Origin: Patescibacteria group bacterium
GTDB taxonomy: Bacteria; Patescibacteriota; Patescibacteriia; Patescibacteriales; GWC2-42-12
Direction: 5' to 3'
NCBI GenBank assembly: GCA_028703305.1
Contig: JAQVNC010000015.1
Span: forward strand, 1-18,141
DNA: 18,141 nucleotides
Shown: one piece after another, positions 1,688 through 18,141 of the stretch
Numbering within the stretch: position 1 is the first letter of the stretch
Layout: every line of letters begins with the position of its first letter
Position numbers and translations under genes: made by a program
The notes under the pieces: model-generated
What the model saw: the letters and a program-made list of their open reading frames with translations, nothing else
What the model was told of the DNA's origin: nothing
Database searches by the model: none

Positions 1688-3619
1688 TTATTTTACCTCT
1701 ATTAAATTTATTTCCTCGGTTAAAGCCTTGAATTCCTCCATCAAATTTTTCATTTTTTCATTCTTTTCCTGGCCATTGATATTTTCTTTTTCTATGCCGG
1801 CGATTAATTTAGCTATTTCGTGGCGCCGGTTATTTAAATAATTTACCCTTAAAGCGGCCATGATATTTATTATCTCGGCTTTAACCTGCTCTTCGCTATA
1901 ATCGTAAAAGTCTTTATCAGCTAAAAGAACCAGCCTGTCCAATAAGCTTAAACACTTATAATTATCAGGCTGGCTATCCGCTTTAACTTTGCCATCTTGT
2001 ATAAAATTATCCGGATTGCTTAACCATTCTTTAAGGCCAAGATAATTTATCGCCAATTCAAAATTTCCCCCTTCTCGAGTCCACAAATCTATGAGCTTAT
2101 TATAATAAATAATTAAATTTCTGTAAAGCAGCTGGTTAGACTCCCCGACTAAATCATCCGGCCCGATATGGTTAATCGCGTATTCCAAGTGGGCGGGAAA
2201 TCTTATAATAAAAGCCAGCAGTAATTCCGAAAGCATCTGCTCCCGGCTTGGTTTTAACCGGCTTAATTCTTTCATCGCTCCGGTTAAAGGCTTGGCTTGA
2301 GCATTAGCCTGGCTTTGCTTTTTTATAATTTCTTTTAATTTCTCCCTTAAAGAATTTTCATTAGCGTCAACCGCCTGGCTTAATTTTTTAAGCCAAAAAT
2401 CTTGCTCGGTTCGCGAGCCGAATTTGGCGATTAAGGGCAATAGTATTTTTTCCGCCTGATTCTGGCCTTCATAATCTTTTAAATTAAGCTTCAAAAAAGT
2501 TTTGTCAAAATAATACTGCGTCATCGGCTTGGCGTTTTTAACCGCCTGCCTCCAGCCGTCAGGATTATTTTTAATGCACTCGTCCGGATCTTTGCCTTCC
2601 GGCAGTTCAATCACTTTAATATTCATCTCCGCTTGCATGGCTTGGGCGATGCCGCGTTCAGCCGCCAAATCCCCGGCCTTATCCATGTCAAAAGACAAAA
2701 ATAAATTATTGGAATAGCGCTTGATTAAATTTACCTGATCAGCCGTTAAGGCCGTGCCTGAAGAAGCGATAACATTATTAAAGCCGTTTTGCGCCGCCGT
2801 GATCGCGTCCATCTGGCCTTCAACCAAGACAACCGCGTCTTCGGCTTTAATAGCCATTTTAGCTTTATCTAAGCCGAACAAAATATTTGATTTATTATAA
2901 ACTGATTTGTCATTAACCATGGTCGCCGGAGTATTTATATATTTTCCCATTTTTTCTTCCGCTTCTTTTTCCGGCCGAACTCGAGCCGTAAAACCAACTA
3001 CATTACCATTGATATCATTTATAGGAAACATAATCCGGCCCCTAAAACGATCATAAAAACCCGGAGTTTTTTCTTTTTTAACCGACAGGCCGGCTAAAAA
3101 AATTTCGTTTTCGCCGTAGCCCCGGCTTTTTAAAAAATGAGTCAGGCTGTCCCAGGTATCCGGACTATAGCCGATTTGCCATTTCTCAATCGTTTCGTCG
3201 GTCAAGCCCCGTTCGCGCAAATACGCCCGCGCGCCTTCAGCCGCCGGACTGGCCGTTAAAACTTTATGGTAATATTTGGCGGACAATTCTAAAATATCCA
3301 AAAGCGTATTGCGTTTTGAAGTTAGCGCCGGGTCGGCTTTTTTTAAAACCACGCCGGCCTTTTTGGCGAGCAAGCGAAGAGTTTCCACAAAACTCAAACC
3401 TTCAATTTCCATGACAAAAGAAAAAATATCCCCGCCTTTGCCGCAACCAAAGCAATGCCAAATCTGCTTTTCCGGGCTAACCATAAACGATGGGGTTTTT
3501 TCCCGATGAAACGGGCAATTGGCGCGAAAATTCAAGCCGGCCGCTTTAAGCTGGATATATTCACGGATAACATCAACGATATCCAATTTTGATTTTATTT
3601 CATCCGAAGGATTTTGCAT
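1688..3619 (-). CDS. dnaG: DNA primase
   Basis: The N-terminal CHC2 zinc finger reads [11 protein letters not shown]...[11 protein letters not shown]. The TOPRIM segment reads [11 protein letters not shown]...SSGTALT...[10 protein letters not shown]. An 8-nt gap separates it from rpoD. Confidence 0.95.
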
Positions 3620-3625
3620 AAAACA

Positions 3626-3940
3626 TTAAAATTTAAAATTTCCCGGCACAAAGTTTTTTATGCGAGCCATTTCCGCTTCCACCACTTCCCCCTCATATTC
3701 GGCGTTATGCGCGTGCGCGCCTTCGTAGCTGGCCTGCTTCTGGTCCAAGTGCAAATTTAAAATTACCTGGCTATTTTGCTCCTCAAGATAAAGATGAAAC
3801 CTAGGATAAAAACCGCGGCCAAACCGCCGCACATAACTTTCTTGGCCGGTGCGCCGATCCGTTAAAAAAGCATAGCCGGCCTGCCTTAATAAATTCTCCG
3901 GCGCTTGGTCTAAAATGTTTTTATCTAATATTAGCTTCAT
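3626..3940 (-). CDS. Hypothetical 104-aa protein, first gene of the dnaG-rpoD operon
   Basis: Clean ORF only 6 nt upstream of dnaG, preceded by a good sigma70-like promoter. No signal peptide or TM segment. Contains a His/Glu-rich patch, GAHAHNAEYEGE. I cannot name a family. Confidence 0.6.
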   Translation of the reverse strand: MKLILDKNILDQAPENLLRQAGYAFLTDRRTGQESYVRRFGRGFYPRFHLYLEEQNSQVILNLHLDQKQASYEGAHAHNAEYEGEVVEAEMARIKNFVPGNFKF

Positions 3941-3972
3941 AATTTTAAATTTAGCCTTCTTATAGTTATTTT

Positions 3973-4001
3973 ATCATAGTTTAAAAATTTAATTAGGTCA
4001 A
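3973..4001 (-). promoter_or_regulatory. Sigma70-like promoter for the ORF104-dnaG-rpoD operon
   Basis: On the minus strand: TTGACC (4001-3996), a 17-nt spacer, then TATGAT (3978-3973). The -10 box ends 32 nt upstream of the ATG at 3940. A purine-rich AAGAAGG lies in the leader. Confidence 0.45.
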
Positions 4002-4825: not shown

Positions 4826-7285
4826 TTAAGATAAGGCAACAATTTTTTTCGGCCTCATCTTTAATTTTATTATTTCAATAACCAAAACCAATAAAACCGC
4901 TTTAGCTAAAAGCAAACTCCATTGGAATAAATTTAAAGGCATCAGGCCGAGAATTTTTTGAGTCGGGGGAAAATAAGTTATAATAAACGCCAAGAGCAGG
5001 CTGAAAATTACTACCATAAAAAGCCATTTATTTGACCAAAAATTCTCATACTGCCAAAACGGCTTGCGTAGCGTCCGGCAGGAAAAAATATAAATAACCG
5101 AGCTGAAAGCCAGCGACATAAAAGCCATTGTCTGCCCTAAAATTAAATTCCCGTGATATAAGCCAAAATACCAGAAAAAACCAAGAGAAATAAGGCCGGA
5201 AAGAAGAGAAATCATAATGGTTAAAAAAATGCCAATTTTGTCAAAGATAGGTTCGGCCATGCTTTTAGGCCCTTCAAGCATGGTTTCTTTTTCCTTGGGC
5301 TCAAAGCCTAAAATAAAATCCTCCGGCCCGTCGCATAAAAGATGAAGCCATAGAATCTGCACGACCGTCAGAGGAAAAGGCCAGCCCAAAATTAAAGCGC
5401 CCATAATAACCACAACTTCCGCGAAAGAATTAGACAGGATAAATAAAATTATCTTTTTGATATTTTCAAATACCAGCCTGCCCGCTTCCACCGCGGAAAT
5501 AATCGTCTTAAAATTATTATCCAAAAGTATGAGATCGGCGGTTTCTTTAGCCACTTCCGAAGCGTCGCCGACCACGATGCCGATATTTGATTTTTTAAGG
5601 GCCGGCGCGTCGTTAACCCCGTCGCCGGTCATAGCGACTATTTCTCCAAGTTCCTGCAGAACGCTTACTATTCTTAATTTCTGCTCGGGCGTAACGCGGG
5701 CGAATAATAAAATGTTAGAAATTCGGCTTTTTAATTCTTTGTCATTTAATTTTTCCAATTCATCCCCTTCTAAAATCTGGCCGGAGTTAATCTTTATACC
5801 CAAATATTCCATGATTTTTACGGCCGTGCGATAATAATCTCCGGTAACAACTTTTATTTTAAGGCCGGCCTGCTTAGCGGCTAAAAGCGTCTCTTTTACG
5901 TCCCGGCGCGGCGGATCCCAAAGTCCGACCATGCCGGCCCAAGTAAAATCCGTTAATTTTTTATTTTTTATTTCTTTTAAGTCATCTTTTGATATTTTTT
6001 TGCTCGCCAGAGCCATCACCTTTAAGCCTTTCTCCGCCCAAGCGTCAATTTTAAGCATTAAAGATTTTTGTTCCGCTGCGGACAGTTCGCACATTTTCAT
6101 AATAATTTCCGGCGCTCCTTTGGCCGACGCCAGATATTCATCGCCGCCCCCGGCGTAAGAATTGACCGTTATCATGAATTTATGTTCGCTGCTAAAAGGA
6201 ATTTCAAAAATTCTGTTGGCTTCGTTAAAGGTTTTTTCCTGATCAAAATCTTTCCGCTCCCTTAAAAAATCCCAAAGCGCGATTTCTTCCGTGCCGCTTA
6301 AGTCGTTGCATAAGCACATCGTTAATAAGCCGCTCCCGGCGTCAATAAAATCGGTTTTAACGACTTTCATTTTTCCTTCCGTCAACGTTCCGGTTTTATC
6401 CGTGCAAATCGTTGTAACCGAGCCCAAAGTTTCCACGGCCAAAATTTTTCTTATCAAAGCTTTTCTTTTCAGGCTGTCCTGCATGGCTAAAACCAAGACT
6501 AAAGTTATAACTATCAGCAGGGCTTCTGGGATAATCGCCACTAATAGAACGGCGGAAAGTTCGGCCATCTGCCAAAAATCCCTGCCTGTTAAAAAACCGA
6601 AAATAAACACCAGGGCCGATAAAAAAACCGAAATAAAAATTAAAGTGTGAGTTAATTTTTTTAAACGAACTTGCAGGGTGGTGGCCGGCTCTTCGGTCTT
6701 TTTTAAAGTTTCGGCGATTTTTCCGATTTTAGTCAATGACCCTATTTTTACCACCTCTATTACGGCTCGGCCGGAAGAAACAATTGTCCCCATGAAAACT
6801 TCGCCGCCGGTTTCTTTTTTAACAGCCTCGCTTTCACCGGTCAAAACGGCTTCGTTGGTGAAAAAAGAAAAAGCTTCAATAACTCGCCCGTCAGCCGGCG
6901 CCCTATCCCCAACCGCTAAAAAAACTATATCTCCCGGGACTAACTCTAAAACGTCTATTTCTTGCCTTTGATTATCCCTAAGCACTCTAGCGCTTGGTTT
7001 TACCAGCTTCTTAAGGGCGGCCAGCGTTTGCTGCGTCTTGTTTTCCTGAAAAAATCCCATGAAAGCGTTAATAATAACCACGGAAAAAATCAGCGCGATA
7101 TCAAAATACTTTTGCAGAAAAAGAGAAATCAGGCCGGCCAAACAAAGGATATAGACCAAAGGATTGGCGAATTGCGAAAGAAAAATTCTAATCGCCGGAA
7201 CGGTTTTTTCCGCCGGCAAAACATTTTTGCCGTATTGAATTTGCCTTTTTTTAACTTCTTCGCAAGTTAAGCCTTTTTGTTTCAT
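4826..7285 (-). CDS. Cation-transporting P-type ATPase (P2-type, Ca2+/Mg2+-like; ion not assignable)
   Basis: Motifs seen: TGESEAV (actuator), IPEAL in TM4, CTDKTGTLT (phosphorylation site), KGAPE, VTGDYYRTA and MTGDGVNDAPALK. The N-terminus, GLTCEEVKKRQIQYGKNVL, resembles the Cation_ATPase_N domain. Confidence 0.9.
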   Translation of the reverse strand: MKQKGLTCEEVKKRQIQYGKNVLPAEKTVPAIRIFLSQFANPLVYILCLAGLISLFLQKYFDIALIFSVVIINAFMGFFQENKTQQTLAALKKLVKPSARVLRDNQRQEIDVLELVPGDIVFLAVGDRAPADGRVIEAFSFFTNEAVLTGESEAVKKETGGEVFMGTIVSSGRAVIEVVKIGSLTKIGKIAETLKKTEEPATTLQVRLKKLTHTLIFISVFLSALVFIFGFLTGRDFWQMAELSAVLLVAIIPEALLIVITLVLVLAMQDSLKRKALIRKILAVETLGSVTTICTDKTGTLTEGKMKVVKTDFIDAGSGLLTMCLCNDLSGTEEIALWDFLRERKDFDQEKTFNEANRIFEIPFSSEHKFMITVNSYAGGGDEYLASAKGAPEIIMKMCELSAAEQKSLMLKIDAWAEKGLKVMALASKKISKDDLKEIKNKKLTDFTWAGMVGLWDPPRRDVKETLLAAKQAGLKIKVVTGDYYRTAVKIMEYLGIKINSGQILEGDELEKLNDKELKSRISNILLFARVTPEQKLRIVSVLQELGEIVAMTGDGVNDAPALKKSNIGIVVGDASEVAKETADLILLDNNFKTIISAVEAGRLVFENIKKIILFILSNSFAEVVVIMGALILGWPFPLTVVQILWLHLLCDGPEDFILGFEPKEKETMLEGPKSMAEPIFDKIGIFLTIMISLLSGLISLGFFWYFGLYHGNLILGQTMAFMSLAFSSVIYIFSCRTLRKPFWQYENFWSNKWLFMVVIFSLLLAFIITYFPPTQKILGLMPLNLFQWSLLLAKAVLLVLVIEIIKLKMRPKKIVALS

Positions 7286-7440: not shown

Positions 7441-8016
7441 TTAGATTGCTCCCATCTTTCTTAACTCAAAATATACTTCATTAATCGGCAAGCCGACAAT
7501 AGAATAAAAATTGCCATTAACGCTTTCCATTAAAACCGCACCCCTGTCCATTAAGCCATAAGCGCCGGCCATATCTAAAGGCTCGCCGGTAGCGATATAT
7601 TCATCAATTTCCTCATCGCTTAAATCCCTGAATTTCACCACCGCCTCGCTATAATTATTTACCACTATTTTATTCTTAGTGTCAATTATAGCATAGCCGG
7701 TAATGCCTCTATTTTCCTTGCCGGACAGCTCGCGTAAAATCCTTTTAGCTTGAGCCGCGTCTTTAGGCTTGCCTAAAGTTTGGCCGTTAAAAATCACTAC
7801 TGAATCAGCGCCGATAATTATGGCATCATTAAAACTCGCGGCCACGGCCTCGGCTTTTTTCAAAGCTAAAAATTTAGCCAACTCAATCGGGTCGGCTAAA
7901 TTTACGCTATCTTCATCAAAATTACTTTCAATAATTTCAAACTCCAGGCCGACTTGCTCTAAAAGCTTTTTTCTTCTCGGCGATTTAGAGGCTAAAACTA
8001 TTTTTCTTTTCTGCAT
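7441..8016 (-). CDS. maf: Maf-family nucleoside triphosphate pyrophosphatase (septum formation protein Maf)
   Basis: N-terminal LASKSPRRKKLLEQVGLEFEI, plus IIGADSVV, GKPKD and the C-terminal GAYGLMDRG...GNFYSIVGLP, all typical of Maf. Confidence 0.9.
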   Translation of the reverse strand: MQKRKIVLASKSPRRKKLLEQVGLEFEIIESNFDEDSVNLADPIELAKFLALKKAEAVAASFNDAIIIGADSVVIFNGQTLGKPKDAAQAKRILRELSGKENRGITGYAIIDTKNKIVVNNYSEAVVKFRDLSDEEIDEYIATGEPLDMAGAYGLMDRGAVLMESVNGNFYSIVGLPINEVYFELRKMGAI

Positions 8017-8021
8017 AAATA

Positions 8022-8675
8022 TTATTTCAATAGCTCGCTGATTATGCTTTTCATGCCTTTATTGCTCCGGCCGTCAGGCGAAATAAAATCTTCAAACGGA
8101 TAAGCGCCGGGATAAATATTGTTGTTGACAAAAATTGTCGGCGTGCCGGTAGCGCCGGCTTTATCGCCCTCGGCCTTTTGTTGGCTGATTTTATCTTTAT
8201 ATTTGCCGCCGGTTAAACATTGATTAAATTGCTCTTGGTTTAAGCCTAAATCAATCGCATCCTGTTTAAATTGCTCTTCGCTTAATCGTCCGGCCTGGTT
8301 ATCGGCAAATAACTTATCATGCATTTCCCAAAACTTACCCTGTTCGGCCGCGCATTCCGAGGCCTCGGCCGCTTTTTCCGCGTCCGGATGACCGGCTAAA
8401 GGGTAATGCCTAAAAGTTATGGCCACCTTATCTTTAAAATTTTCTTCCACTTGTTTCATGGTCTCGGAAAATTTAACGCAAAACGGACATTCAAAATCGC
8501 TGTAGACAATCATAGCGACCGGCGCATTCGGATTGCCCCAAACATGATCAGTCTGGTCAACCGGCTTGGCCGTTTGATTATTTTGCGTCGTTTGGTTGTT
8601 TCTGGTTATGAAAATAAAACCGACTGCAACTATGGCAATCGCGATTATTAAAAATATTTTATTTTGCTTGGACAT
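8022..8675 (-). CDS. Membrane-anchored DsbA/BdbD-like thiol:disulfide oxidoreductase (thioredoxin fold)
   Basis: N-terminal TM anchor (IFLIIAIAIVAVGFIFI). CPFC active site in YSDFECPFCVKF. DsbA-family tail GATGTPTIFVNN (cis-Pro loop). Confidence 0.8.
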   Translation of the reverse strand: MSKQNKIFLIIAIAIVAVGFIFITRNNQTTQNNQTAKPVDQTDHVWGNPNAPVAMIVYSDFECPFCVKFSETMKQVEENFKDKVAITFRHYPLAGHPDAEKAAEASECAAEQGKFWEMHDKLFADNQAGRLSEEQFKQDAIDLGLNQEQFNQCLTGGKYKDKISQQKAEGDKAGATGTPTIFVNNNIYPGAYPFEDFISPDGRSNKGMKSIISELLK

Positions 8676-8715: not shown

Positions 8716-10179
8716 TTAAATTTCCGCTTTTTTCAGATGCCACTCGGTCGCTTTTTCATAACTGCTCCCCACTCTAAATAGCGTGGCTTCATCAAAACGT
8801 TTGCCGATTAATTGCAAGCCGACCGGCAGGTTTTTATCAAAACCGCAGGGAATGGAAATAGCGGGTAATCCGGCCAGCGACGCTCCGGTTACAAAAATAT
8901 CTTCAAGATACATTTTTAACGGATCGTTGGACTGTTCGCCGATTTTAAAAGCTGCATGCGGCTCGGTTGGAGTTAACAAGCAATCCACGGTTTCTAAAAC
9001 TTTATCCATTTCTTGCTTTATTTTTGTCCTGACTTTTTGGGCCTGCAGATAATAAGCTTCAAAATAACCGGCGCTTAAGGCATAGGTGCCGAGCATGATG
9101 CGGCGTTTAGCTTCCGGCCCAAAACCTTTACCCCGGCTTTTGGTGTAAATGCTCATTAAATCAGCTTTAGCCCTATCGTCATCTTGGATGCTTAAGCCGT
9201 ATTTTATGCCGTCAAAACGCGCCAAATTGGAGCTAATTTCCGATGGTGTAATAATATAATAAACCGGCACGCCGTATTTTGTATGCGGCAGGCTGACTTG
9301 TTTAAATTTCGCGCCTAACTTTTTAAAATCTTCAATGGCTTTTTCCATGGCTTCGGTCACGCCTTTGTCAGTGCCTTCTATAAAATATTCTTTAGGCAAA
9401 CCGATAGTCAGGCCTTTTAAACTGCCGCCTTTAGCAAAGTGGGTCAGGGGGATTTTATCCACCGTGGTCGCGTCATTCTTATCAACTCCGGCGATAACTG
9501 ACAACACAATGGCCGCGTCTTCAACCGTTTTAGTTAATGGTCCGGGCACATCGGTTGAGCTGGTCATGGCGATAAGGCCAAAACGAGATGAACGGCCATA
9601 GGTCGGCTTTAAACCGGTAATACCGCAAAAACTGGCCGGGCATCTTATTGATCCGCCCGTATCCGTACCTAGGGCAAATAAACACATATCCGCGGCCACA
9701 GCCGCGCCTGATCCGCCGGAAGAACCGCCGGGCACGCGGGACAGATCCCAGGGATTATGCGTCGTGCCGTATGCCGAATTTTCCGTGGAGGCGCCATGCG
9801 CGAATTCGTCTAAATTGGTTTTGCCGAGTAGAACGGCGCCGGCCTGTTTTAATCTTTTTATAATAGTCGCGTCATAAGGCGCGATATAATTTTCTAAAAT
9901 TTTTGAAGCGGCCGTGGTTTTAACGCCTCGGGTCATAATATTATCCTTGGCCAAATACGGGATGCCTAATAATTCTCCGGTTTCGTCGTTCTTTATTTTC
10001 TCGTCAGCTTTTTTAGCTTCCGCCAAAGCTTCTTTTTCGCAGACGGTTAAACAAGCTTTGATTTTCCCGTCCACCTCTTTAATCCGCTTTAAACACGCCT
10101 TGGTCAAATCAACCGAGGTTATTTCTTTTTTTGCCAGCATCTGGCCGGCTTGTTTTATGGTAAGTTGATTTAATTTCAT
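8716..10179 (-). CDS. gatA: Glutamyl/aspartyl-tRNA(Gln/Asn) amidotransferase subunit A
   Basis: Amidase signature GGSSGGSGAAVAA...GTDTGGSIRCPASFCGITGLKPTYG. The 487-aa length fits, and it is 3 nt downstream of gatC. Confidence 0.95.
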   Translation of the reverse strand: MKLNQLTIKQAGQMLAKKEITSVDLTKACLKRIKEVDGKIKACLTVCEKEALAEAKKADEKIKNDETGELLGIPYLAKDNIMTRGVKTTAASKILENYIAPYDATIIKRLKQAGAVLLGKTNLDEFAHGASTENSAYGTTHNPWDLSRVPGGSSGGSGAAVAADMCLFALGTDTGGSIRCPASFCGITGLKPTYGRSSRFGLIAMTSSTDVPGPLTKTVEDAAIVLSVIAGVDKNDATTVDKIPLTHFAKGGSLKGLTIGLPKEYFIEGTDKGVTEAMEKAIEDFKKLGAKFKQVSLPHTKYGVPVYYIITPSEISSNLARFDGIKYGLSIQDDDRAKADLMSIYTKSRGKGFGPEAKRRIMLGTYALSAGYFEAYYLQAQKVRTKIKQEMDKVLETVDCLLTPTEPHAAFKIGEQSNDPLKMYLEDIFVTGASLAGLPAISIPCGFDKNLPVGLQLIGKRFDEATLFRVGSSYEKATEWHLKKAEI

Positions 10180-10182
10180 ATT

Positions 10183-10476
10183 TTATTCTATAACTCGTTT
10201 AACTTTAATAAACCTGCCTTCCCTCTCCGGCGCGTCGGCCAGAGCCGCTTCAATTTCTTTCTCATCCCAATTTTTTATTTCATCGCCGCGCAAAACATTT
10301 TCCTGCCCGGTTATCTGAGCGGTCGGCTCCACGCCTTTAACGTCAACTTCTTTTAGCTGGTCAATATAATTTAAAACCGCGGATAGCTGTCCGCCGTATT
10401 TTTCTAATTCTTCGCCAGTCAGTTCCAACCTGGCCAACTTAGCGATGTGTTGTATTTCGTCTTTGGATAAATTCAT
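10183..10476 (-). CDS. gatC: Glutamyl/aspartyl-tRNA amidotransferase subunit C
   Basis: 97 aa. The N-terminus IQHIAKLARLELTGEELEKYGGQLSAVLNYIDQL is the typical GatC pattern. It sits immediately upstream of gatA. Confidence 0.9.
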   Translation of the reverse strand: MNLSKDEIQHIAKLARLELTGEELEKYGGQLSAVLNYIDQLKEVDVKGVEPTAQITGQENVLRGDEIKNWDEKEIEAALADAPEREGRFIKVKRVIE

Positions 10477-10480
10477 AAAA

Positions 10481-10509
10481 CTAACGAATCAACGAATTAA
10501 ACAACAAAT
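10481..10509. repeat. Left arm of the bipartite inverted repeat flanking the GxxExxY ORF
   Basis: CTAACGAATCAACGAAT (10481-10497) is the exact reverse complement of 10944-10960. ACAACAAAT (10501-10509) is the exact reverse complement of 10923-10931. Confidence 0.85.
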
Positions 10510-10510
10510 A

Positions 10511-10921
10511 TCACGAATAATTCACTGATTCTTTATTGTTTGGATTTAATATTCTTAATGTTTTTACTCCGTAAGCGGTAAAATTAATTATTAAAGCTAA
10601 TTTATGCCCTGTCACTTTTAAATATTCTTTGACTTGGTTGATATTCTTTCTTGAAAAATAATTCCCCCTTTTTAATTCAACTATAATTTTATCTTCAACT
10701 AAAAAATCTAAATAATATGTGCCTATTTTTTCTTCGTGAAAAATTATATTATACGGTAGCTGTCTCTTGTAATTAATTTTTCTTTCAACAAAAATTTTTT
10801 CTACCGCCTTTTCATAATGTTTTTCCTGATAACCATACCCCAACTCATTAAATACTTCAAACATTATACCAACTATATTATAGCTTAAATCTTTATAAAT
10901 AATTTCTACCTCCTTTCTCAT
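10511..10921 (-). CDS. GxxExxY-family protein (PD-(D/E)XK nuclease-fold superfamily)
   Basis: Signature G30-Y-Q-E-K-H-Y36, then D72 (LDFLVED) and E82-L-K84 (VELK) as in PD-(D/E)XK, plus NQVKEYLK...LALIINF. The gene is much more AT-rich than its neighbours. Confidence 0.85.
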   Translation of the reverse strand: MRKEVEIIYKDLSYNIVGIMFEVFNELGYGYQEKHYEKAVEKIFVERKINYKRQLPYNIIFHEEKIGTYYLDFLVEDKIIVELKRGNYFSRKNINQVKEYLKVTGHKLALIINFTAYGVKTLRILNPNNKESVNYS

Positions 10922-10922
10922 A

Positions 10923-13435
<2,513 letters not shown>

Positions 13436-13488: not shown

Positions 13489-14085
13489 TTAAAATAAGCA
13501 GCTGAAATTCCAAGGAAAAGCCATGGGAAAAACAAAATTGCAACCTGCCGGCGGAGCGGGTTCGCAAGCTCCGTCTACGCACGATTCGCCGTCGCCGCAA
13601 GAGCCGCAAGAACCGCCGCAGCCGTCATCTCCGCAAACTTTACCGGTACAATCCGGCGTACAAACAGGAAGTTCGCTGACTAAATATGTGCTTTCCACCG
13701 ATCTTTTAGCGCCGGCATAAATGCCAATTGATTTAAAAGTAACATAAGACGTTGAACTGGCATAATTTACCTGATAAGCGCTATTGTTGCCAAGATCAGC
13801 CAGGCTAAAAACATTATCGGTATCTACGTCAGGTAAAGCATAACTGTTTTTTCTGGCTTCCCATAAAGCCCGCTCCATACCGGCTTCGGATGCGAAATAT
13901 GCCAGGTTTGAATAACCGGCCAAACGGTTCATCTTTATGCCGGCTAAAACCAACTCGGCGGCGCCTAAAGTAATAATTAAAATACCGGATAAAATAAACA
14001 AAGTTAAAAGTAAAATTACGCCTTTTTGATTTTTTATATTATTATAAAATAAATTCATATTGAAAAATTTTTTAGGAGCCTTCAT
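13489..14085 (-). CDS. PilX/GspK-like pseudopilin lacking Glu+5, with a C-terminal Cys-rich module
   Basis: KNQKG|VILLLTLFILSGILIITLGAA is a class III-like leader, but with Leu at +5. AYFASEAGMERAL resembles the PilX N-terminal domain. There are 10 Cys in residues 142-196. The ATG at 14085 overlaps the upstream stop by 14 nt; the alternative Met10 is at 14058. Confidence 0.65.
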   Translation of the reverse strand: MKAPKKFFNMNLFYNNIKNQKGVILLLTLFILSGILIITLGAAELVLAGIKMNRLAGYSNLAYFASEAGMERALWEARKNSYALPDVDTDNVFSLADLGNNSAYQVNYASSTSYVTFKSIGIYAGAKRSVESTYLVSELPVCTPDCTGKVCGDDGCGGSCGSCGDGESCVDGACEPAPPAGCNFVFPMAFPWNFSCLF

Positions 14086-14665
14086 AATACCTTGAAGAAA
14101 CCGTCATTTGAATTTTCATTCTCTGCTCATGTATCGCCTGCCCGACAGCTTTAACATCTACTAACATAGTAACGTAAGGCTGAATACCGGGCAAAGCGCC
14201 AATTAAATCATCATTCACGTAAAATTTTAAATTGCTGACTTCAATTTTTGCCGGAGTAATAAAACCTTCAACATTGCCGGCATCAGACTCGGCCATTATC
14301 TTAAGGCGATTATCTTCCAGATAATAAACCACGCAATTGCCATATTGATTTTTAAAATAAAGCTTGCTATTATCGCCGGTTGTATTAAAAACTTTAAAAA
14401 CCGCGGTCGGCGGCACGCTAAACATATCTTCGCAATCATGATTGCTAATTCCCGCCATTCTGATTTCTTTGCTTATTTTTTCCATGGCGTATCTCATGCT
14501 CTCTTGCACGTTTTGCGCGCTGATAGAGCTTCTTTGCCCGTCAATTACCATTTTAAAAATTCCGGTCGCGACTAACATTAGAACGGAAAAAATCGCTACC
14601 GCGACTATTAATTCCAGCAAACTTACGCCTTTTTCAGCTTTAAATTTTTTTATAAATAAACTCAT
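14072..14665 (-). CDS. Prepilin-type pseudopilin, PilW/GspJ-like
   Basis: KAEKG|VSLLELIVAVAIFSVLMLVATGIF has Gly-1, Glu+5 and a hydrophobic helix. The 197-aa size and its position after a PilV-like gene fit PilW/GspJ. Confidence 0.72.
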   Translation of the reverse strand: MSLFIKKFKAEKGVSLLELIVAVAIFSVLMLVATGIFKMVIDGQRSSISAQNVQESMRYAMEKISKEIRMAGISNHDCEDMFSVPPTAVFKVFNTTGDNSKLYFKNQYGNCVVYYLEDNRLKIMAESDAGNVEGFITPAKIEVSNLKFYVNDDLIGALPGIQPYVTMLVDVKAVGQAIHEQRMKIQMTVSSRYYEGS

Positions 14666-14789: not shown

Positions 14790-15302
14790 TCATCGCCAAT
14801 TATACAAATAAGTTTCGGCCGTATAATTATGGTTTTGCGCGCCGTCTTTCCAGCGGATCTCGCATTTAACATCAAGATAATCAGTATGATCAACCGCGGT
14901 AATTAAGCGATAAAAATTTGTCGGCGCGGCGCTTGTCTCATGAGTATAAAGGCCACTGCCGTTAAGATATAGCCTGGCGCCGTCTTCAGATATGGAATTT
15001 ATGGCCTGACTAATGCTCGCCGGCCCGCGATAATCAATAATATAAGTGCCGTCGCCCACTATATTTTGGTTCCAGGCATTGCCTGGCGTCAGCCAATTTA
15101 AATCCCTGATATTTCTTACCAACTCCAAGCCTTCCTGGGCTAAACCAGAAGCCATTAAAACATTTTTATTGATATATTGGGCTTCCACATTTTGAATTAC
15201 CAGCGACAAAACGCCGATCATGCCCATGGTAATTATCATCATGGCTACCACAACTTCTAAGATGCTAATGCCCGAATTGTTGTAAATTTTTTTTATTTTC
15301 AT
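14790..15302 (-). CDS. Prepilin-type pseudopilin, PilV/GspI-like
   Basis: MKIKKIYNNSG|ISILEVVVAMMIITMGMIGVLSL has Gly-1 and Glu+5, and the GxxG..L tail is typical of PilV. I prefer the ATG at 15302, 1 nt after the upstream TAA, over the TTG at 15317 used by the track. Confidence 0.72.
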   Translation of the reverse strand: MKIKKIYNNSGISILEVVVAMMIITMGMIGVLSLVIQNVEAQYINKNVLMASGLAQEGLELVRNIRDLNWLTPGNAWNQNIVGDGTYIIDYRGPASISQAINSISEDGARLYLNGSGLYTHETSAAPTNFYRLITAVDHTDYLDVKCEIRWKDGAQNHNYTAETYLYNWR

Positions 15303-15303
15303 T

Positions 15304-15837
15304 TTAATCCGTGTCAATTAAGCCGAAAAAATTAACCGAGACTTGAGCCGTTGAATTATTAATATTTTCTTTTAAAACGATTTCCGCGGCCGCGTTGCTT
15401 AAACCATTGATATAAGTTATTGGATCAGGCGGAAAAAAAACAATATCAACCGTATCGGCCGGACTTAAAGAATCTATGGTTATGCCGGCCGGTAAAGTTT
15501 TAGTCTCTACGGCTTCGCTTGCGTCATATGCCTGATCGCCGTTAGGCGCGTTTTTATCGGCAAAAATAATATAACGCGTCGGATCGGTTAAATCAAAATG
15601 CACGCCCCAGCCGCCGCCAGGCGTAGTAACGCCGTCATAAGTTTTTGAACCCAAGCTGTAATTTTGCGCCAGCCTGATATCTGAAGCTAATTTCTGTTTT
15701 ATCACGCCGAGTTCCGAACGCTTATTGGTATCATGGTAATTAACCATAAACAAGCCGCTCATCATCACAACTATAAAAATACTGACCGTTAATTCAATTA
15801 AGGTAAATCCTGATAAATTTTTAGCTTGTTTTTTCAT
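15304..15837 (-). CDS. Prepilin-type pseudopilin, FimT/FimU/GspH-like
   Basis: The canonical N-methylation motif is KNLSG|FTLIELTVSIFIVVMMSG. The following KQKLASDIRLAQNYSL resembles the GspH/FimT helix. Confidence 0.8.
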   Translation of the reverse strand: MKKQAKNLSGFTLIELTVSIFIVVMMSGLFMVNYHDTNKRSELGVIKQKLASDIRLAQNYSLGSKTYDGVTTPGGGWGVHFDLTDPTRYIIFADKNAPNGDQAYDASEAVETKTLPAGITIDSLSPADTVDIVFFPPDPITYINGLSNAAAEIVLKENINNSTAQVSVNFFGLIDTD

Positions 15838-15907: not shown

Positions 15908-17545
15908 CTATTCCGGCTTAACCTCTTTCCATTTTGGCAGCTTGGCGCTAACATTAATCGTCTCTGAAGTTGAAACATAATAGCCGTCGTTATCAGTTAC
16001 TTTTAAAGCCACTGTGAAACTGCCGGCCGAATTAAAAGTTATAATCGGCGAAGTGGTGGCCGAATCATTGATGCTGGCTCCGGCCGTAGCGGTCCAAAGG
16101 TAAGTACAAAGTTCATCCGAACAATCAACCGCCGTATCCGGCGCCGCGGCTAGATACACTTTACTGATATTAGTAAAGCTAACTTGCTCGCTTTTACTAG
16201 GATTATTCGGAGAATAAGTAAAATCCGGTTCAGGCATTTTATGCTTATAGGTGGTAAAAGTTGGGACTACGCCGTCATCATTATCCGTATCCGGATTAGT
16301 GTCATAATCCTTGATAGCCGAAGCTATCTCGCTATCATCCCATACTTGAACCGACCATTTATAACCTTGATTATAGTCCAGCAAAGCGCTGTCTAGTATA
16401 TATTGGCAGACGCAATCGCCCGGACTAACGCAGCCGGTCGCGCCGTTTTCCAGGCAAATAGTATTATCAATTTTACAATCGGCCGAGGGCGTCTGATAGC
16501 CGGTGCATACGCCCGTATCTAACACCGCGGTATCATCGGCTTTCTTTACGATAACTTGATAAGCCGAGCCGTAGGAGCCGGTATCCGCGTCAACCATATT
16601 AAATTGCAAATTGGCGCGCAAGGCGCCGCTAACCGCGGCCTGGGCATAAGTCCAGTTAGGCGCGGTTAGTCCGGAAACCTCCGGGGCCTGATTAACCGAT
16701 ACGAATTTAACTTTATAATCAACTGTGCCGCAGCTTGAATCGTTATTGCAATTAAAACTTACCCAGCCAACCTGTTCGCCATAAGCCCAGCCCTCAAATT
16801 CATTGGTGGTAAAATTTATTTTTACTTGGCTGGCGCCGGCCGGAGCAAAATCAATCCAGCCGGCCTGTTCGCCATAAGCCGTACCGCTTAAATTGCCAAA
16901 GCCGTCATTTAAAACGCCGCCGCCGGCCGGAAATAAATTAATCCAGCCTAATTGTTCCGAGTAGGCATAGCCTTCAAGATGGTCGGTATAGACGGTAGTG
17001 GTAGCCATGTCCGGATTATTAAACTTAATCCAGCCAACCTGCTCGCTAAAAGCATAGTCTTCGGCATAACCTAATAATATTTGCTGGGTAACGCCATAAC
17101 CGATACCGGAAAAACTAATCCAGCCGACACTCTCACCCCAGGCATAGCCGGAAAAAACTCCGTTTTCATCAACGCTCACGCCGCCGCCGGCCGGCGCGAA
17201 ATCAATATAGCCGGTTTGCTCGCCCCAGGCATAGCCGGAAAGCGTACCGCCGCTATTTAATACCCGGTAAAAATTCGCCGCGCAAGATCCGCCGTCAGTA
17301 TTAGCGCAATCCATGCTAATCCAGCCCAGATTCTCGCTCCAGGCCCAGCCGGTTAATTTATCGGCTTCAACCATGGTTTCATAGCCCTCCGGCGCCAGAT
17401 TTATCCAGCCGGTTAACTCGCCCCAGGCATAGCCGGAAGCCTGATCGGCCGCGGACGCGGTAAAAGAATGGCTGTTATATATCAGAATTGCCACAAGCGC
17501 TGACAAAGCCAATAAAAATGAAAATTTTAAATATTTTTTAAGCAT
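15908..17545 (-). CDS. Secreted multidomain protein: Sec signal, 8 aromatic repeats, Fn3-like domain with a Cys-rich insert, C-terminal PKD-like domain
   Basis: Signal peptide LLALSALVAILIY...FTASA|AD. Eight copies of G[YW]A[WYF][GS]ExxG[WY]Ix[FLM]. The C-terminus FTYSP...YLWTATAG...FTVALKVTDNDGY fits the PKD pattern. Confidence 0.85.
   Translation of the reverse strand: MLKKYLKFSFLLALSALVAILIYNSHSFTASAADQASGYAWGELTGWINLAPEGYETMVEADKLTGWAWSENLGWISMDCANTDGGSCAANFYRVLNSGGTLSGYAWGEQTGYIDFAPAGGGVSVDENGVFSGYAWGESVGWISFSGIGYGVTQQILLGYAEDYAFSEQVGWIKFNNPDMATTTVYTDHLEGYAYSEQLGWINLFPAGGGVLNDGFGNLSGTAYGEQAGWIDFAPAGASQVKINFTTNEFEGWAYGEQVGWVSFNCNNDSSCGTVDYKVKFVSVNQAPEVSGLTAPNWTYAQAAVSGALRANLQFNMVDADTGSYGSAYQVIVKKADDTAVLDTGVCTGYQTPSADCKIDNTICLENGATGCVSPGDCVCQYILDSALLDYNQGYKWSVQVWDDSEIASAIKDYDTNPDTDNDDGVVPTFTTYKHKMPEPDFTYSPNNPSKSEQVSFTNISKVYLAAAPDTAVDCSDELCTYLWTATAGASINDSATTSPIITFNSAGSFTVALKVTDNDGYYVSTSETINVSAKLPKWKEVKPE
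16751..17434 (-). repeat. In-frame coding repeat array (8 units, 28-38 aa period) inside the 545-aa gene
   Basis: Repeat cores start at residues 38, 66, 104, 133, 163, 192, 221 and 252. DNA-level identical 22-mers lie at 17218-17239 and 17417-17438. Identical 17-mers lie at 16914-16930 and 17177-17193. Confidence 0.85.
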
Positions 17546-17571: not shown

Positions 17572-17604
17572 ATTATACCATAATTTTATATAATATGGTA
17601 TGAT
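17572..17604. promoter_or_regulatory. Back-to-back divergent extended -10 promoters formed by an 8-bp inverted repeat
   Basis: ATACCATA (17575-17582) and TATGGTAT (17594-17601) are exact inverted repeats. On the minus strand they read TGGTATAAT (17580-17572), 26 nt upstream of the ATG at 17545. On the plus strand they read TGGTATGAT (17596-17604), 39 nt upstream of the ATG at 17644. Confidence 0.45.
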
Positions 17605-17643
17605 TATTATAGCTTATTTAATCATTAACAAAAACTTAAATTT

Positions 17644-18141
17644 ATGGATAACCAGCCAATAAAAAATTTTATCAGTTTTAGCTCTAAATCAATTTGGGCC
17701 TCGGTAATTATTTATCTGCTAATAGTTATCGTAATAATTATCGGCAGTTATTATTTCGGCTATAATCAAGGCTTAGCCAAGGGCGCCGAAAAAGGGCGGG
17801 CGCAAACCAGCCAAGAAATGCAAAATAAACTAAGCCAGTCGCCCATGGTTCAAGCCGATCAAAACAAAATTTTAAGAATTTCCGGAGAAATTTTAAATAA
17901 ATCCGAGGCTTCGGCCGCGCCCCAATTTTTAACGGTCAGCGCGGCTAATCTAAACCGCAACCCTTTAAGCGCGCCCACGCCGGCCCAAAGAAAAATCTTA
18001 ATTAGCGCCGATACTAAAATCATTAAAAAAATTCGCAAGCCGTCTGATCAAATCGCCAAAGAAAGATACCAATACGCCGAGGAGTTTAAAAAAAATCCTA
18101 ACGCAACCATGCCCGAGACTACGATAGATTCGCCGATTGCT
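17644..18141 (+). CDS. 5' part of a single-pass membrane-anchored hypothetical protein (runs off the right edge)
   Basis: My own translation from the ATG at 17644 is open for all 166 codons to the window end: MDNQPIKNFISFSSKSIWASVIIYLLIVIVIIIGSYYFGY.... It has one clear TM helix. It is absent from the ORF track, presumably because it has no stop codon. Confidence 0.55.
   Translation, partial: MDNQPIKNFISFSSKSIWASVIIYLLIVIVIIIGSYYFGYNQGLAKGAEKGRAQTSQEMQNKLSQSPMVQADQNKILRISGEILNKSEASAAPQFLTVSAANLNRNPLSAPTPAQRKILISADTKIIKKIRKPSDQIAKERYQYAEEFKKNPNATMPETTIDSPIA

Follow-up and report, generated by a model that had tools for sequence, protein, structure and literature searches.

An aromatic four-unit beta-repeat module on a candidate pilus-associated protein encoded with minor pilins in Patescibacteria

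Type IV filaments, whether type IV pili (T4P) or type II secretion systems (T2SS), are primed and capped by the core minor pilins H-I-J-K. The PilY1/PilC proteins are large, Sec-exported and not themselves pilins, share an operon with these core minor pilins (FimU/GspH, PilV/GspI, PilW/GspJ and PilX/GspK), and carry a beta-rich domain that is thought to touch the target surface. Here we analysed a protein of comparable plan, encoded on an 18,141-nucleotide (nt) stretch of DNA, hereafter the window, which is contig JAQVNC010000015.1 (GenBank assembly GCA_028703305.1) from a metagenome-assembled genome (MAG) of a Patescibacteria group bacterium. The means by which these ultrasmall bacteria find and hold their hosts are largely unknown, and type IV pili have been implicated. 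The window protein (545 amino acids, aa), which is deposited as MDD4271924.1 (‘hypothetical protein PHF50_03935’), carries eight copies of an aromatic repeat in its N-terminal half. On balance, we favour the reading that it is a PilY1-like adhesin that is associated with the pilus without being a pilin, and that the repeat module is its ligand-binding head.

In this reading, the window protein would be a functional counterpart of PilY1, or of PilX2 in Saccharibacteria, without belonging to the PilY1 family. PilY1/PilC (PF05567) gave no Pfam match in the window protein and no Foldseek match. The window gene lies upstream of the minor-pilin genes, whereas the PilY1 gene comes after pilX, and the head is predicted to be a meander of 4+4 units, whereas that of PilY1 is a seven-bladed propeller. 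We know of no PilY1 counterpart to the short invariant tail at the C-terminus of the window protein.

Closer in taxonomy are PilX1 and PilX2 of TM7x (Nanosynbacter lyticus), large lectin-like beta-domain proteins that are encoded in pilin loci without a PilD-type signal and whose accessory domains, a jelly-roll and an RCC1-type seven-bladed propeller, sit on a pilin-like lollipop (PMC11623550). Deletion of pilX2 led to a significant host-binding defect and did not abolish the pilus (PMC11623550), and PilX2 is thus the proposed adhesin candidate in TM7x, the one cultured system studied. The window protein resembles PilX1 and PilX2 in superphylum, in its pilin locus, in its beta domains and in having no PilD signal; it is set apart by their published descriptions, since its head is a new repeat module on an Ig-like/PKD-like stalk. 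In modular type IV pilins such as Streptococcus sanguinis PilB (PMC8179133), a bulky binding module is likewise placed on a low-abundance pilus component; those proteins are genuine pilins, made with a class III signal peptide, whereas the window protein has a Sec-type start and no pilin domain.

The window protein and its repeat module

The gene and the parts of its product are as follows:

15908..17545, minus strand: whole gene, encoding a 545-aa secreted protein laid out as signal peptide, two repeat modules, Ig-like domain, PKD-like domain and C-terminal tail
17450..17545, minus strand: probable Sec-type signal peptide (aa 1-32), with a basic KK..K start, hydrophobic FSFLLALSALVAILIY, and ASA before ADQ
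16754-17434, minus strand: eight-unit repeat region (aa 38-264), motif [GD]-x-A-[WYF]-[GS]-E-x-x-G-[WY]-[IV]-x-[FLM]
17066..17434, minus strand: module copy A, units 1-4 (aa 38-160); positions 4-119 of the family hidden Markov model (HMM) match aa 31-147
16706..17065, minus strand: module copy B, units 5-8 plus cap (aa 161-280); family HMM positions 9-133 match aa 161-280
16226..16690, minus strand: Ig-like beta-sandwich domain (about aa 286-440), conserved throughout the tail-bearing subfamily
15941..16213, minus strand: PKD-like domain (about aa 445-535)
15911..15940, minus strand: C-terminal tail LPKWKEVKPE (aa 536-545), nearly invariant across the subfamily encoded directly upstream of minor-pilin genes

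The putative cleavage site of the signal peptide was placed from the sequence, and a similar N-terminal start is found in nearly all relatives of the window protein. The N-terminus (MLKKYLKFSFLLALSALVAILIYNSHSFTASA) lacks the prepilin motif G-F-T-L-x-E and gave no N_methyl match in Pfam; the protein is therefore not a pilin.

A regular expression found exactly the eight units that the original prediction (made by a model from the letters of the stretch) had listed, at its coordinates (16751-17434), with unit starts at aa 38, 66, 104, 133, 163, 192, 221 and 252. The resulting spacings of 28, 38, 29, 30, 29, 29 and 31 aa agree with the predicted period of 28-38 aa, and the predicted invariant Glu was present in all eight units, as was the Gly-[WY] pair three residues on. 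The individual unit sequences had been listed correctly, and the general motif proposed from them, G[YW]A[WYF][GS]-E-x-x-G-[WY]-I-x-[FLM], misfits three units, in that unit 5 begins with D, the second residue of unit 7 is T, and V replaces I in unit 8. The linkers are as originally described, with PAGGGV at units 3 and 6 and Cys pairs at units 2 and 8. A looser core ([YWF]A[WYF][GS]E..G[WY]) occurs seven times in the window protein, while at least one occurrence was seen in 1 of 20,000 shuffles. Tandem Repeats Finder detected no DNA-level tandem repeat in the repeat region, which implies that the units are old and maintained at the protein level, and are neither a recent duplication nor an assembly artefact.

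The eight units make up a canonical four-unit module that is present twice in tandem. The family HMM matches twice and the order of linkers and caps recurs, which together identify two complete modules. Copy A shows the canonical linker order, namely a V.V.D..L.G type, a Cys loop (DCANTDGGSC), PAGGGV.VD and a Cys-less cap (SGIGYGV, a variant also present in L038), and copy B repeats the order of linker types and closes with the canonical NC...SC....YKV cap (NCNNDSSCGTVDYKVKF). Growth of a single module from four to eight units is disfavoured by the HMM matches and by this order. The window departs from the family consensus in having Gln in five of the eight units at the position after the Glu, where the family has Asn.

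As originally proposed, the repeat matches no named family, and none of the sequence, profile and structure comparisons gave a match to it. The repeat region had no match in Pfam-A 2025 or NCBIfam 20.0 even at E ≤ 10, and the matches found in the window protein were confined to its C-terminal half, where Pfam PKD is borderline (23.1 bits against a cut-off of 23.5, with weak matches in relatives too) and the Ig-like match (Ig_Rha78A_N) is weak; in the relative L117 the latter reaches E 4.9e-10 (40.1 bits against a cut-off of 27.4). Searches of PDB sequences with phmmer and with a 61-sequence profile returned only PKD domains or nothing, with none on the repeat; by phmmer the PKD domains match the C-terminal part of the window protein at E 0.006-0.3. 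The relatives likewise have no precomputed Pfam domain on the module. Full-text literature searches for the repeat motif and for the tail motif WKEVKP returned nothing relevant, and tblastn of the repeat region against plasmids and a collection of cultured phages gave no match.

AlphaFold models were made of window aa 28-290 (predicted local distance difference test, pLDDT, 88.4; predicted template modelling score, pTM, 0.72) and, lest the two-module model mask a domain-level match, of P0100, a whole protein of 175 aa with one canonical module (pLDDT 90.1, pTM 0.77). Both predicted models are all-beta with a hairpin at each unit, in line with the beta-hairpins suggested originally. According to DSSP, each modelled unit is a three-stranded antiparallel meander composed of a short linker strand (e.g., VSVD), a long strand (e.g., VFSGYAWG), a 3-residue turn from the invariant Glu, and a third strand (e.g., GWIS). 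Foldseek gave no match at E ≤ 0.001 in the PDB (both models) or, among viral structures, in BFVD; the best PDB matches of the two models had E 1.2e-3 and 0.09, and the best query-normalised template modelling (TM) scores were 0.21 and 0.34. As far as these predicted models go, the module is without a recognisable solved analogue.

Two groups of known proteins are nonetheless worth comparing. The fungal fucose lectins AAL and AFL (FleA) are repetitive and all-beta, and their six-bladed propellers (AFL/FleA/AAL) were the sole recurring top Foldseek neighbours of both models, at non-significant scores (TM about 0.18-0.19, root-mean-square deviation 9.6-19 Å). They have six repeats with blades of about 50 aa and four strands, whereas DSSP assigns three strands to the units of the window family, so that on the models the resemblance is at most one of local strand pattern. 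Choline-binding repeats (CW_binding_1) and the combined repetitive oligopeptides (CROPs) of clostridial toxins are also secreted tandem beta-hairpin units, short and rich in aromatic residues and Gly, with ligand sites made of aromatic residues and multivalent binding. That choline-binding repeats are different, as had been noted from the start, is borne out by their period of about 20 aa (against 28-38 aa), by their other motif and by the lack of any Pfam match to CW_binding_1 (PF01473) on aa 38-265 even at E ≤ 10; the window unit also differs from both groups in being three-stranded in the models and in having conserved Cys pairs in some linkers.

The same observations bear on whether the module is an unrecognised enzyme, for instance one that cleaves glycans through its invariant Glu. 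Such a residue is indeed present in every unit, but it recurs once per unit in a predicted beta-turn, which is typical of a structural or ligand-contact position and not of a single active site. Moreover, no similarity to any enzyme family was found (Pfam, NCBIfam, PDB, Foldseek) and the listed partner domains of the module are non-catalytic, so we consider an enzymatic role highly improbable.

Minor-pilin linkage of a tail-bearing subfamily

The window gene lies in an operon-like arrangement with minor pilins, which fits the pilus association considered in the original prediction. Since the upstream gene is divergent, the repeat gene is the first of the putative operon, which comprises the following features:

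17603..17631, minus strand: sigma-70-like promoter match (TTGTTA, 17 nt, AATAAT) within the AT-rich interval that separates the repeat gene from the divergent gene; a consensus match only
15304..15837, minus strand: prepilin-like minor pilin of GspH/FimU type (SGFTLIE), 70 nt 3' of the repeat gene; Pfam N_methyl and GspH (NCBIfam best match GspH, below cut-off)
14790..15317, minus strand: prepilin-like minor pilin of PilV/GspI type (SGISILE), overlapping the GspH-like open reading frame (ORF)
14072..14665, minus strand: prepilin-like minor pilin of GspJ/PilW type (KGVSLLE)
13489..14085, minus strand: 198-aa pilin-like protein in the PilX/GspK position, with N-terminus KGVILLLTLFIL lacking Glu5 and a Cys-rich C-terminus
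13052..13435, minus strand: 127-aa secreted protein rich in Cys; its gene closes the putative operon and is conserved at the orthologous locus L083

The minor-pilin family assignments are best matches under curated cut-offs, and the PilX/GspK assignment of 13489..14085 (orthologue at L083 12506-13108) is based on position and N-terminal features only, with no family match.

The closest orthologue, P0122, is encoded in a full T4P cluster (L083) that contains PilC, two pilins, a Wzy_C/TPR protein, PilD, two unknown genes and then P0122, followed by the same minor-pilin set, ligA and gatCA. The window protein and P0122 have little in common beyond the module, save for their tails (LPKWKEVKPE and MPLWKEVKPR). 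In a different arrangement, P0215 (L088), with the tail variant LPLWEEVSP, is encoded directly upstream of PilM, PilO, PilB, PilC and pilin genes. A separate feature of L083 is its O-antigen-ligase-like Wzy_C/TPR protein (721 aa, 1827-3992), a candidate enzyme of pilin glycosylation whose gene is flanked by the pilin genes and PilD.

The tail, [LM]P.WKEVKP[EKQR] followed by a stop codon, is found in the window (15911-15940), in L083 (near 9660-9692), in L088 (near 10280-10310) and in L089-L142, on proteins whose identity to the window protein is otherwise mostly 27-46%. No membrane helix comes after this peptide, which is therefore not a sortase or exosortase signal. We scanned Joint Genome Institute (JGI) metagenomes with a seed consisting only of the DNA pattern encoding P.WKEVKP, one more residue and a stop, a strict KEVKP pattern that undercounts variants such as the P0215 tail. 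This tail-only scan retrieved 54 stretches, and in 44 of them an ORF ended in [LMF]P.WKEVKP. Among the full-length tail-bearing ORFs (about 400-940 aa), 29 of 32 carried the module in their N-terminal half (E 1e-11 to 1e-49). Two or three prepilin ORFs followed on the same strand in 26 of the 29 loci having at least 1.5 kb of 3' DNA, at spacings from the stop codon of roughly +100-400, +600-1150 and +1200-1900 nt, and after dereplication this was so for 17 of 20 tail-bearing groups. The co-encoding of a non-pilin with minor pilins that characterises PilY1 thus recurs in the window, in the orthologous locus L083 and in these 17 groups. Taxonomic labels (Patescibacteria) are attached within the tail-bearing set to the window protein and P0122 only. 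An alignment of 29 non-redundant full-length tail-bearing proteins, of which 27 came from the metagenome scan and the other two were the window protein and P0215, showed that the chassis after the module is conserved, with an Ig-like domain (Ig_Rha78A_N type), a PKD-like domain and the tail.

Several exchangeable heads occur on this chassis, most often the repeat module. The product of L131 1162-2718 (-) shares 63% identity with the window protein over aa 285-545, while its N-terminal half is unrelated and consists of a Cys-rich head with a CGGGTQTC motif. Another unrelated head is joined to the same Ig/PKD/tail chassis in L137 (1900-3345, -), and in L142 (6470-9280, -) the head bears repeated CGGGTQTQT motifs; prepilins lie downstream in both. 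Since the prepilins persist when heads are swapped, the pilin linkage belongs to the chassis and tail, that is, it tracks the Ig-like/PKD-like stalk and LPxWKEVKPE. The module and a pilin locus are also joined in an independent architecture, in a Saccharibacteria MAG (L037, 89-8369, +), where a pilin, PilD, three prepilins and a Glu5-less pilin-like ORF are followed by a 1,469-aa protein with Big_3_5, Big_1 and LamG domains, whose last 110 residues are a four-unit module (E 5e-56).

The type IV pili of Patescibacteria have been proposed to take up DNA, and co-encoding with minor pilins would also be expected if the module were the DNA receptor of a competence pilus, like ComZ or ComP. The repeat region (17% Gly, 17% aromatic) is strongly acidic, however, with a net charge of about -22 and 4 basic residues in 228 aa (16 E, 10 D, 3 K, 1 R), and has no known DNA-binding signature. 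We rejected a DNA receptor on the charge of the repeat region, and give it hardly any credence.

In the adhesin reading that we favour, Sec would export the window protein, and its tail and stalk would join the minor-pilin complex that primes and caps a type IV pilus. The pilus would then display two acidic, aromatic four-unit modules, which may bind a surface ligand on a partner or host cell, most likely a glycan. Carbohydrate appears the most plausible ligand because of the Trp/Tyr/Glu/Asn(Gln) chemistry of the repeat and its multivalency.

The wider module family and its bearing on function

Beyond the tail-bearing subfamily, the module defines a large family. A word-indexed search of 90% clusters returned 3,575 matching proteins, one of them labelled Nanoarchaeota; none has a name, and none carries a Pfam domain on the module. 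An exhaustive phmmer search of 1.84 billion cluster representatives (50% identity) gave 5,283 matches at E ≤ 1e-3, of which 2,158 were at E ≤ 1e-10, and at least 586 loci were detected when GTDB was scanned with a single genome for each species. The GTDB lineages include Patescibacteria, Desulfuromonadales and other Deltaproteobacteria, Planctomycetota, Chloroflexota, Nitrospirota, Gemmatimonadota, Acidobacteriota, Spirochaetia and Gammaproteobacteria; for the 80 GTDB loci listed, every genome is metagenome-assembled or uncultured.

The family consensus is a four-unit module directly after the signal peptide. Its first half reads ID....YAW.EN.GWI.F - G.V.V.D..L.G - YAWGEN.GWISLNC.N..SC.T..Y.V.NDG.GNLSG and its second half YAWGEN.GWINF.P..GGV.ID..G.FSG - YAWGENIGWI.FNC....SC....YKV.T.W. 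The consensus of 997 units is [LF]-S-G-Y-A-W-[GS]-E-N-x-G-W-I-x-F, with the following conservation of the unit core:

Positions 1-5: G 79%, Y 75%, A 98%, W 85%, G or S 83%
Positions 6-9: E 89%, N 83%, position 8 variable, G 100%
Positions 10-13: W 98%, I 80%, position 12 variable, F 73%

The module is nearly always terminal on secreted proteins, with an anchor or a stalk at the opposite end. Partner domains in 78 diverse relatives were CarboxypepD_reg (23 proteins), Big_13, Big_7, PKD, fn3, HYR, cadherin-like, PG_binding_1 and SLH, to which the word-indexed matches added LysM and more PG_binding_1, and none of the partner families listed is enzymatic. In short members from Planctomycetes and others, the module is combined with a dockerin-like tail or a C-terminal membrane anchor. 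A constant terminal head on varied stalks and anchors is the pattern expected of a binding module.

Among these short proteins, the Planctomycete-type members (L041, L045, L047, L055, L056, L058, L062, L064, L075 and L078) have about 200-230 aa, in which a single module lies between a signal peptide and a dockerin-like tail that ends in CPDGW.LK. Their genes lie near 7900-8580 (4842-5468 in L078), and a right-handed beta-helix (PF13229-type) gene is located upstream in nine of the ten loci.

This range of architectures bears on whether the module instead anchors its protein to the wall polymers of its own cell, as choline-binding, SLH and CWB2 repeats do, with the C-terminal domains being the functional part. 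The repeated aromatic beta-hairpin unit does recall choline-binding repeats and the module immediately follows the signal peptide, but many members are already anchored at the other end (PG_binding_1, SLH, LysM, dockerin-like tails, membrane anchors), and the module is found in lineages whose envelopes are very different (Planctomycetota, Desulfuromonadales, Gammaproteobacteria, Chloroflexota, Patescibacteria). In the L037 protein, the module is at the far end of a 1,469-aa, largely Ig-like sequence, and CW_binding_1 gave no match. We therefore regard envelope anchoring as rather improbable.

Across the GTDB loci, the module gene is most commonly accompanied by one whose product has an Lcl_C/DUF1566 (C-type-lectin-like) domain at its C-terminus: 44 of the 80 loci have such a neighbour, which in most cases shares the strand of the module gene and is often less than 100 nt away (e.g., L017 4306-5145, L036 10262-11668, L040 6896-7870). 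L002 has one as well (5000-5809), and so does P0021, which, like P0007, has no pilins in its context; Planctomycete loci have the upstream beta-helix gene instead. A diversity-generating retroelement (a reverse transcriptase gene and a bAvd gene) is found in 10 of the 80 loci, and eight of the ten (further examples of such loci being L018, L035, L038, L049 and L061) have template repeat/variable repeat (TR/VR) pairs that differ at adenines, as in:

L017: TR 5791-5933, VR 5009-5151
L036: TR 13148-13298, VR 11526-11676

The variable region was at the 3' end of the Lcl_C gene in six of the eight TR/VR loci and in the module gene in none of these. This arrangement suits a role of the module as an adaptor that holds a co-encoded partner (Lcl_C/DUF1566 proteins or, here, minor pilins) on the surface instead of binding an external ligand: its nearest conserved neighbour is the Lcl_C gene, and all ten retroelement loci are Lcl_C loci. 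On the other side, 36 of the 80 loci have the module but no Lcl_C gene nearby, the window subfamily has no Lcl_C neighbour (reverse transcriptase, Avd and Lcl_C genes are all absent from the window), and the pilin linkage of that subfamily follows the tail and stalk, as L137 and L142 illustrate. An adaptor role seems unlikely to us, although of the alternatives set out here it has the most in its favour. The tie to retroelement targets of the DUF1566 type suggests that the wider family takes part more broadly in variable surface recognition.

Several observations weigh against the adhesin reading of the window protein. A prepilin-like ORF occurred within 8 kb in only 3 of the 80 GTDB loci listed, using a detector (a regular expression plus a hydrophobicity filter) that recovered all three N_methyl ORFs of the window and that, being built in this way, may miss divergent pilins. 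The module is thus not pilin-linked family-wide, and its intrinsic activity is not pilus-specific. We accordingly rejected the co-occurrence of repeat and pilin genes across the family, which the original prediction had named as a check; the pilus link that it raised stands for the window subfamily and fails for the repeat as such. Even within the tail-bearing set, prepilins are missing downstream in 3 of 20 dereplicated groups, and L131 has no prepilin in the 1.16 kb of downstream sequence present. The synteny between the window and L083 extends to ligA and gatCA, so it is partly just inherited gene order. The attachment of the window protein to a pilus is inferred from gene context, and docking of the LPxWKEVKPE tail to the pilus or minor-pilin complex is a guess. 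Finally, glycan binding is suggested by composition (aromatic, acidic, Gly-rich, multivalent) and by fucose-lectin Foldseek neighbours that are non-significant, the main one having E 1.2e-3 and TM 0.18.

A broader version of the adhesin reading can be offered more tentatively, as possible but short of probable. The module would be a new lectin-type fold that serves as a general recognition head in many uncultured phyla; in Patescibacteria, the Ig/PKD stalk and LPxWKEVKPE would plug into the minor-pilin tip, with exchangeable heads setting the host or partner specificity of the episymbiont. If true, this would define a class of type IV pilus tip adhesins that has so far escaped recognition and whose heads can be exchanged. 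The operon class, a tail-bearing stalk protein and then minor pilins, can be recognised from sequence alone, and its commonest head is a never-described large domain family that comprises thousands of clusters from many phyla and is represented neither in Pfam nor among solved structures. These loci hence provide concrete candidates for host recognition and a domain that merits curation and structure determination, and their short tail peptide may represent a new signal for docking to the pilus.

Other genes of the window and its orthologous locus

A Cys-rich mini-motif (C..DC.GK.CG.DGCGG.CG.C) occurs in the window in the product of 13489-14085 (aa ~140-175) and in L083 in the products of 10393-11835 and 12506-13108. 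In both the window and the orthologous locus, it is located at or past the globular part of minor-pilin-like proteins that differ from one another, and one of its bearers in L083 is a PilV-like protein enlarged to 480 aa.

Between ligA and gatC, the window contains a gene for a protein of the PDDEXK_3 family (PD-(D/E)XK nuclease family; 10511-10921, -); in L083-L085, ligA is directly followed by gatC, without an inserted nuclease gene. The divergent gene upstream of the repeat gene (about 17688-18141, +) runs off the contig end and encodes a membrane-anchored product with AANL.RNPL.(x)PTPA.R. A similar product is encoded at L088 4509-5117 (-), near the P0215 pilus cluster and in the opposite orientation to it.

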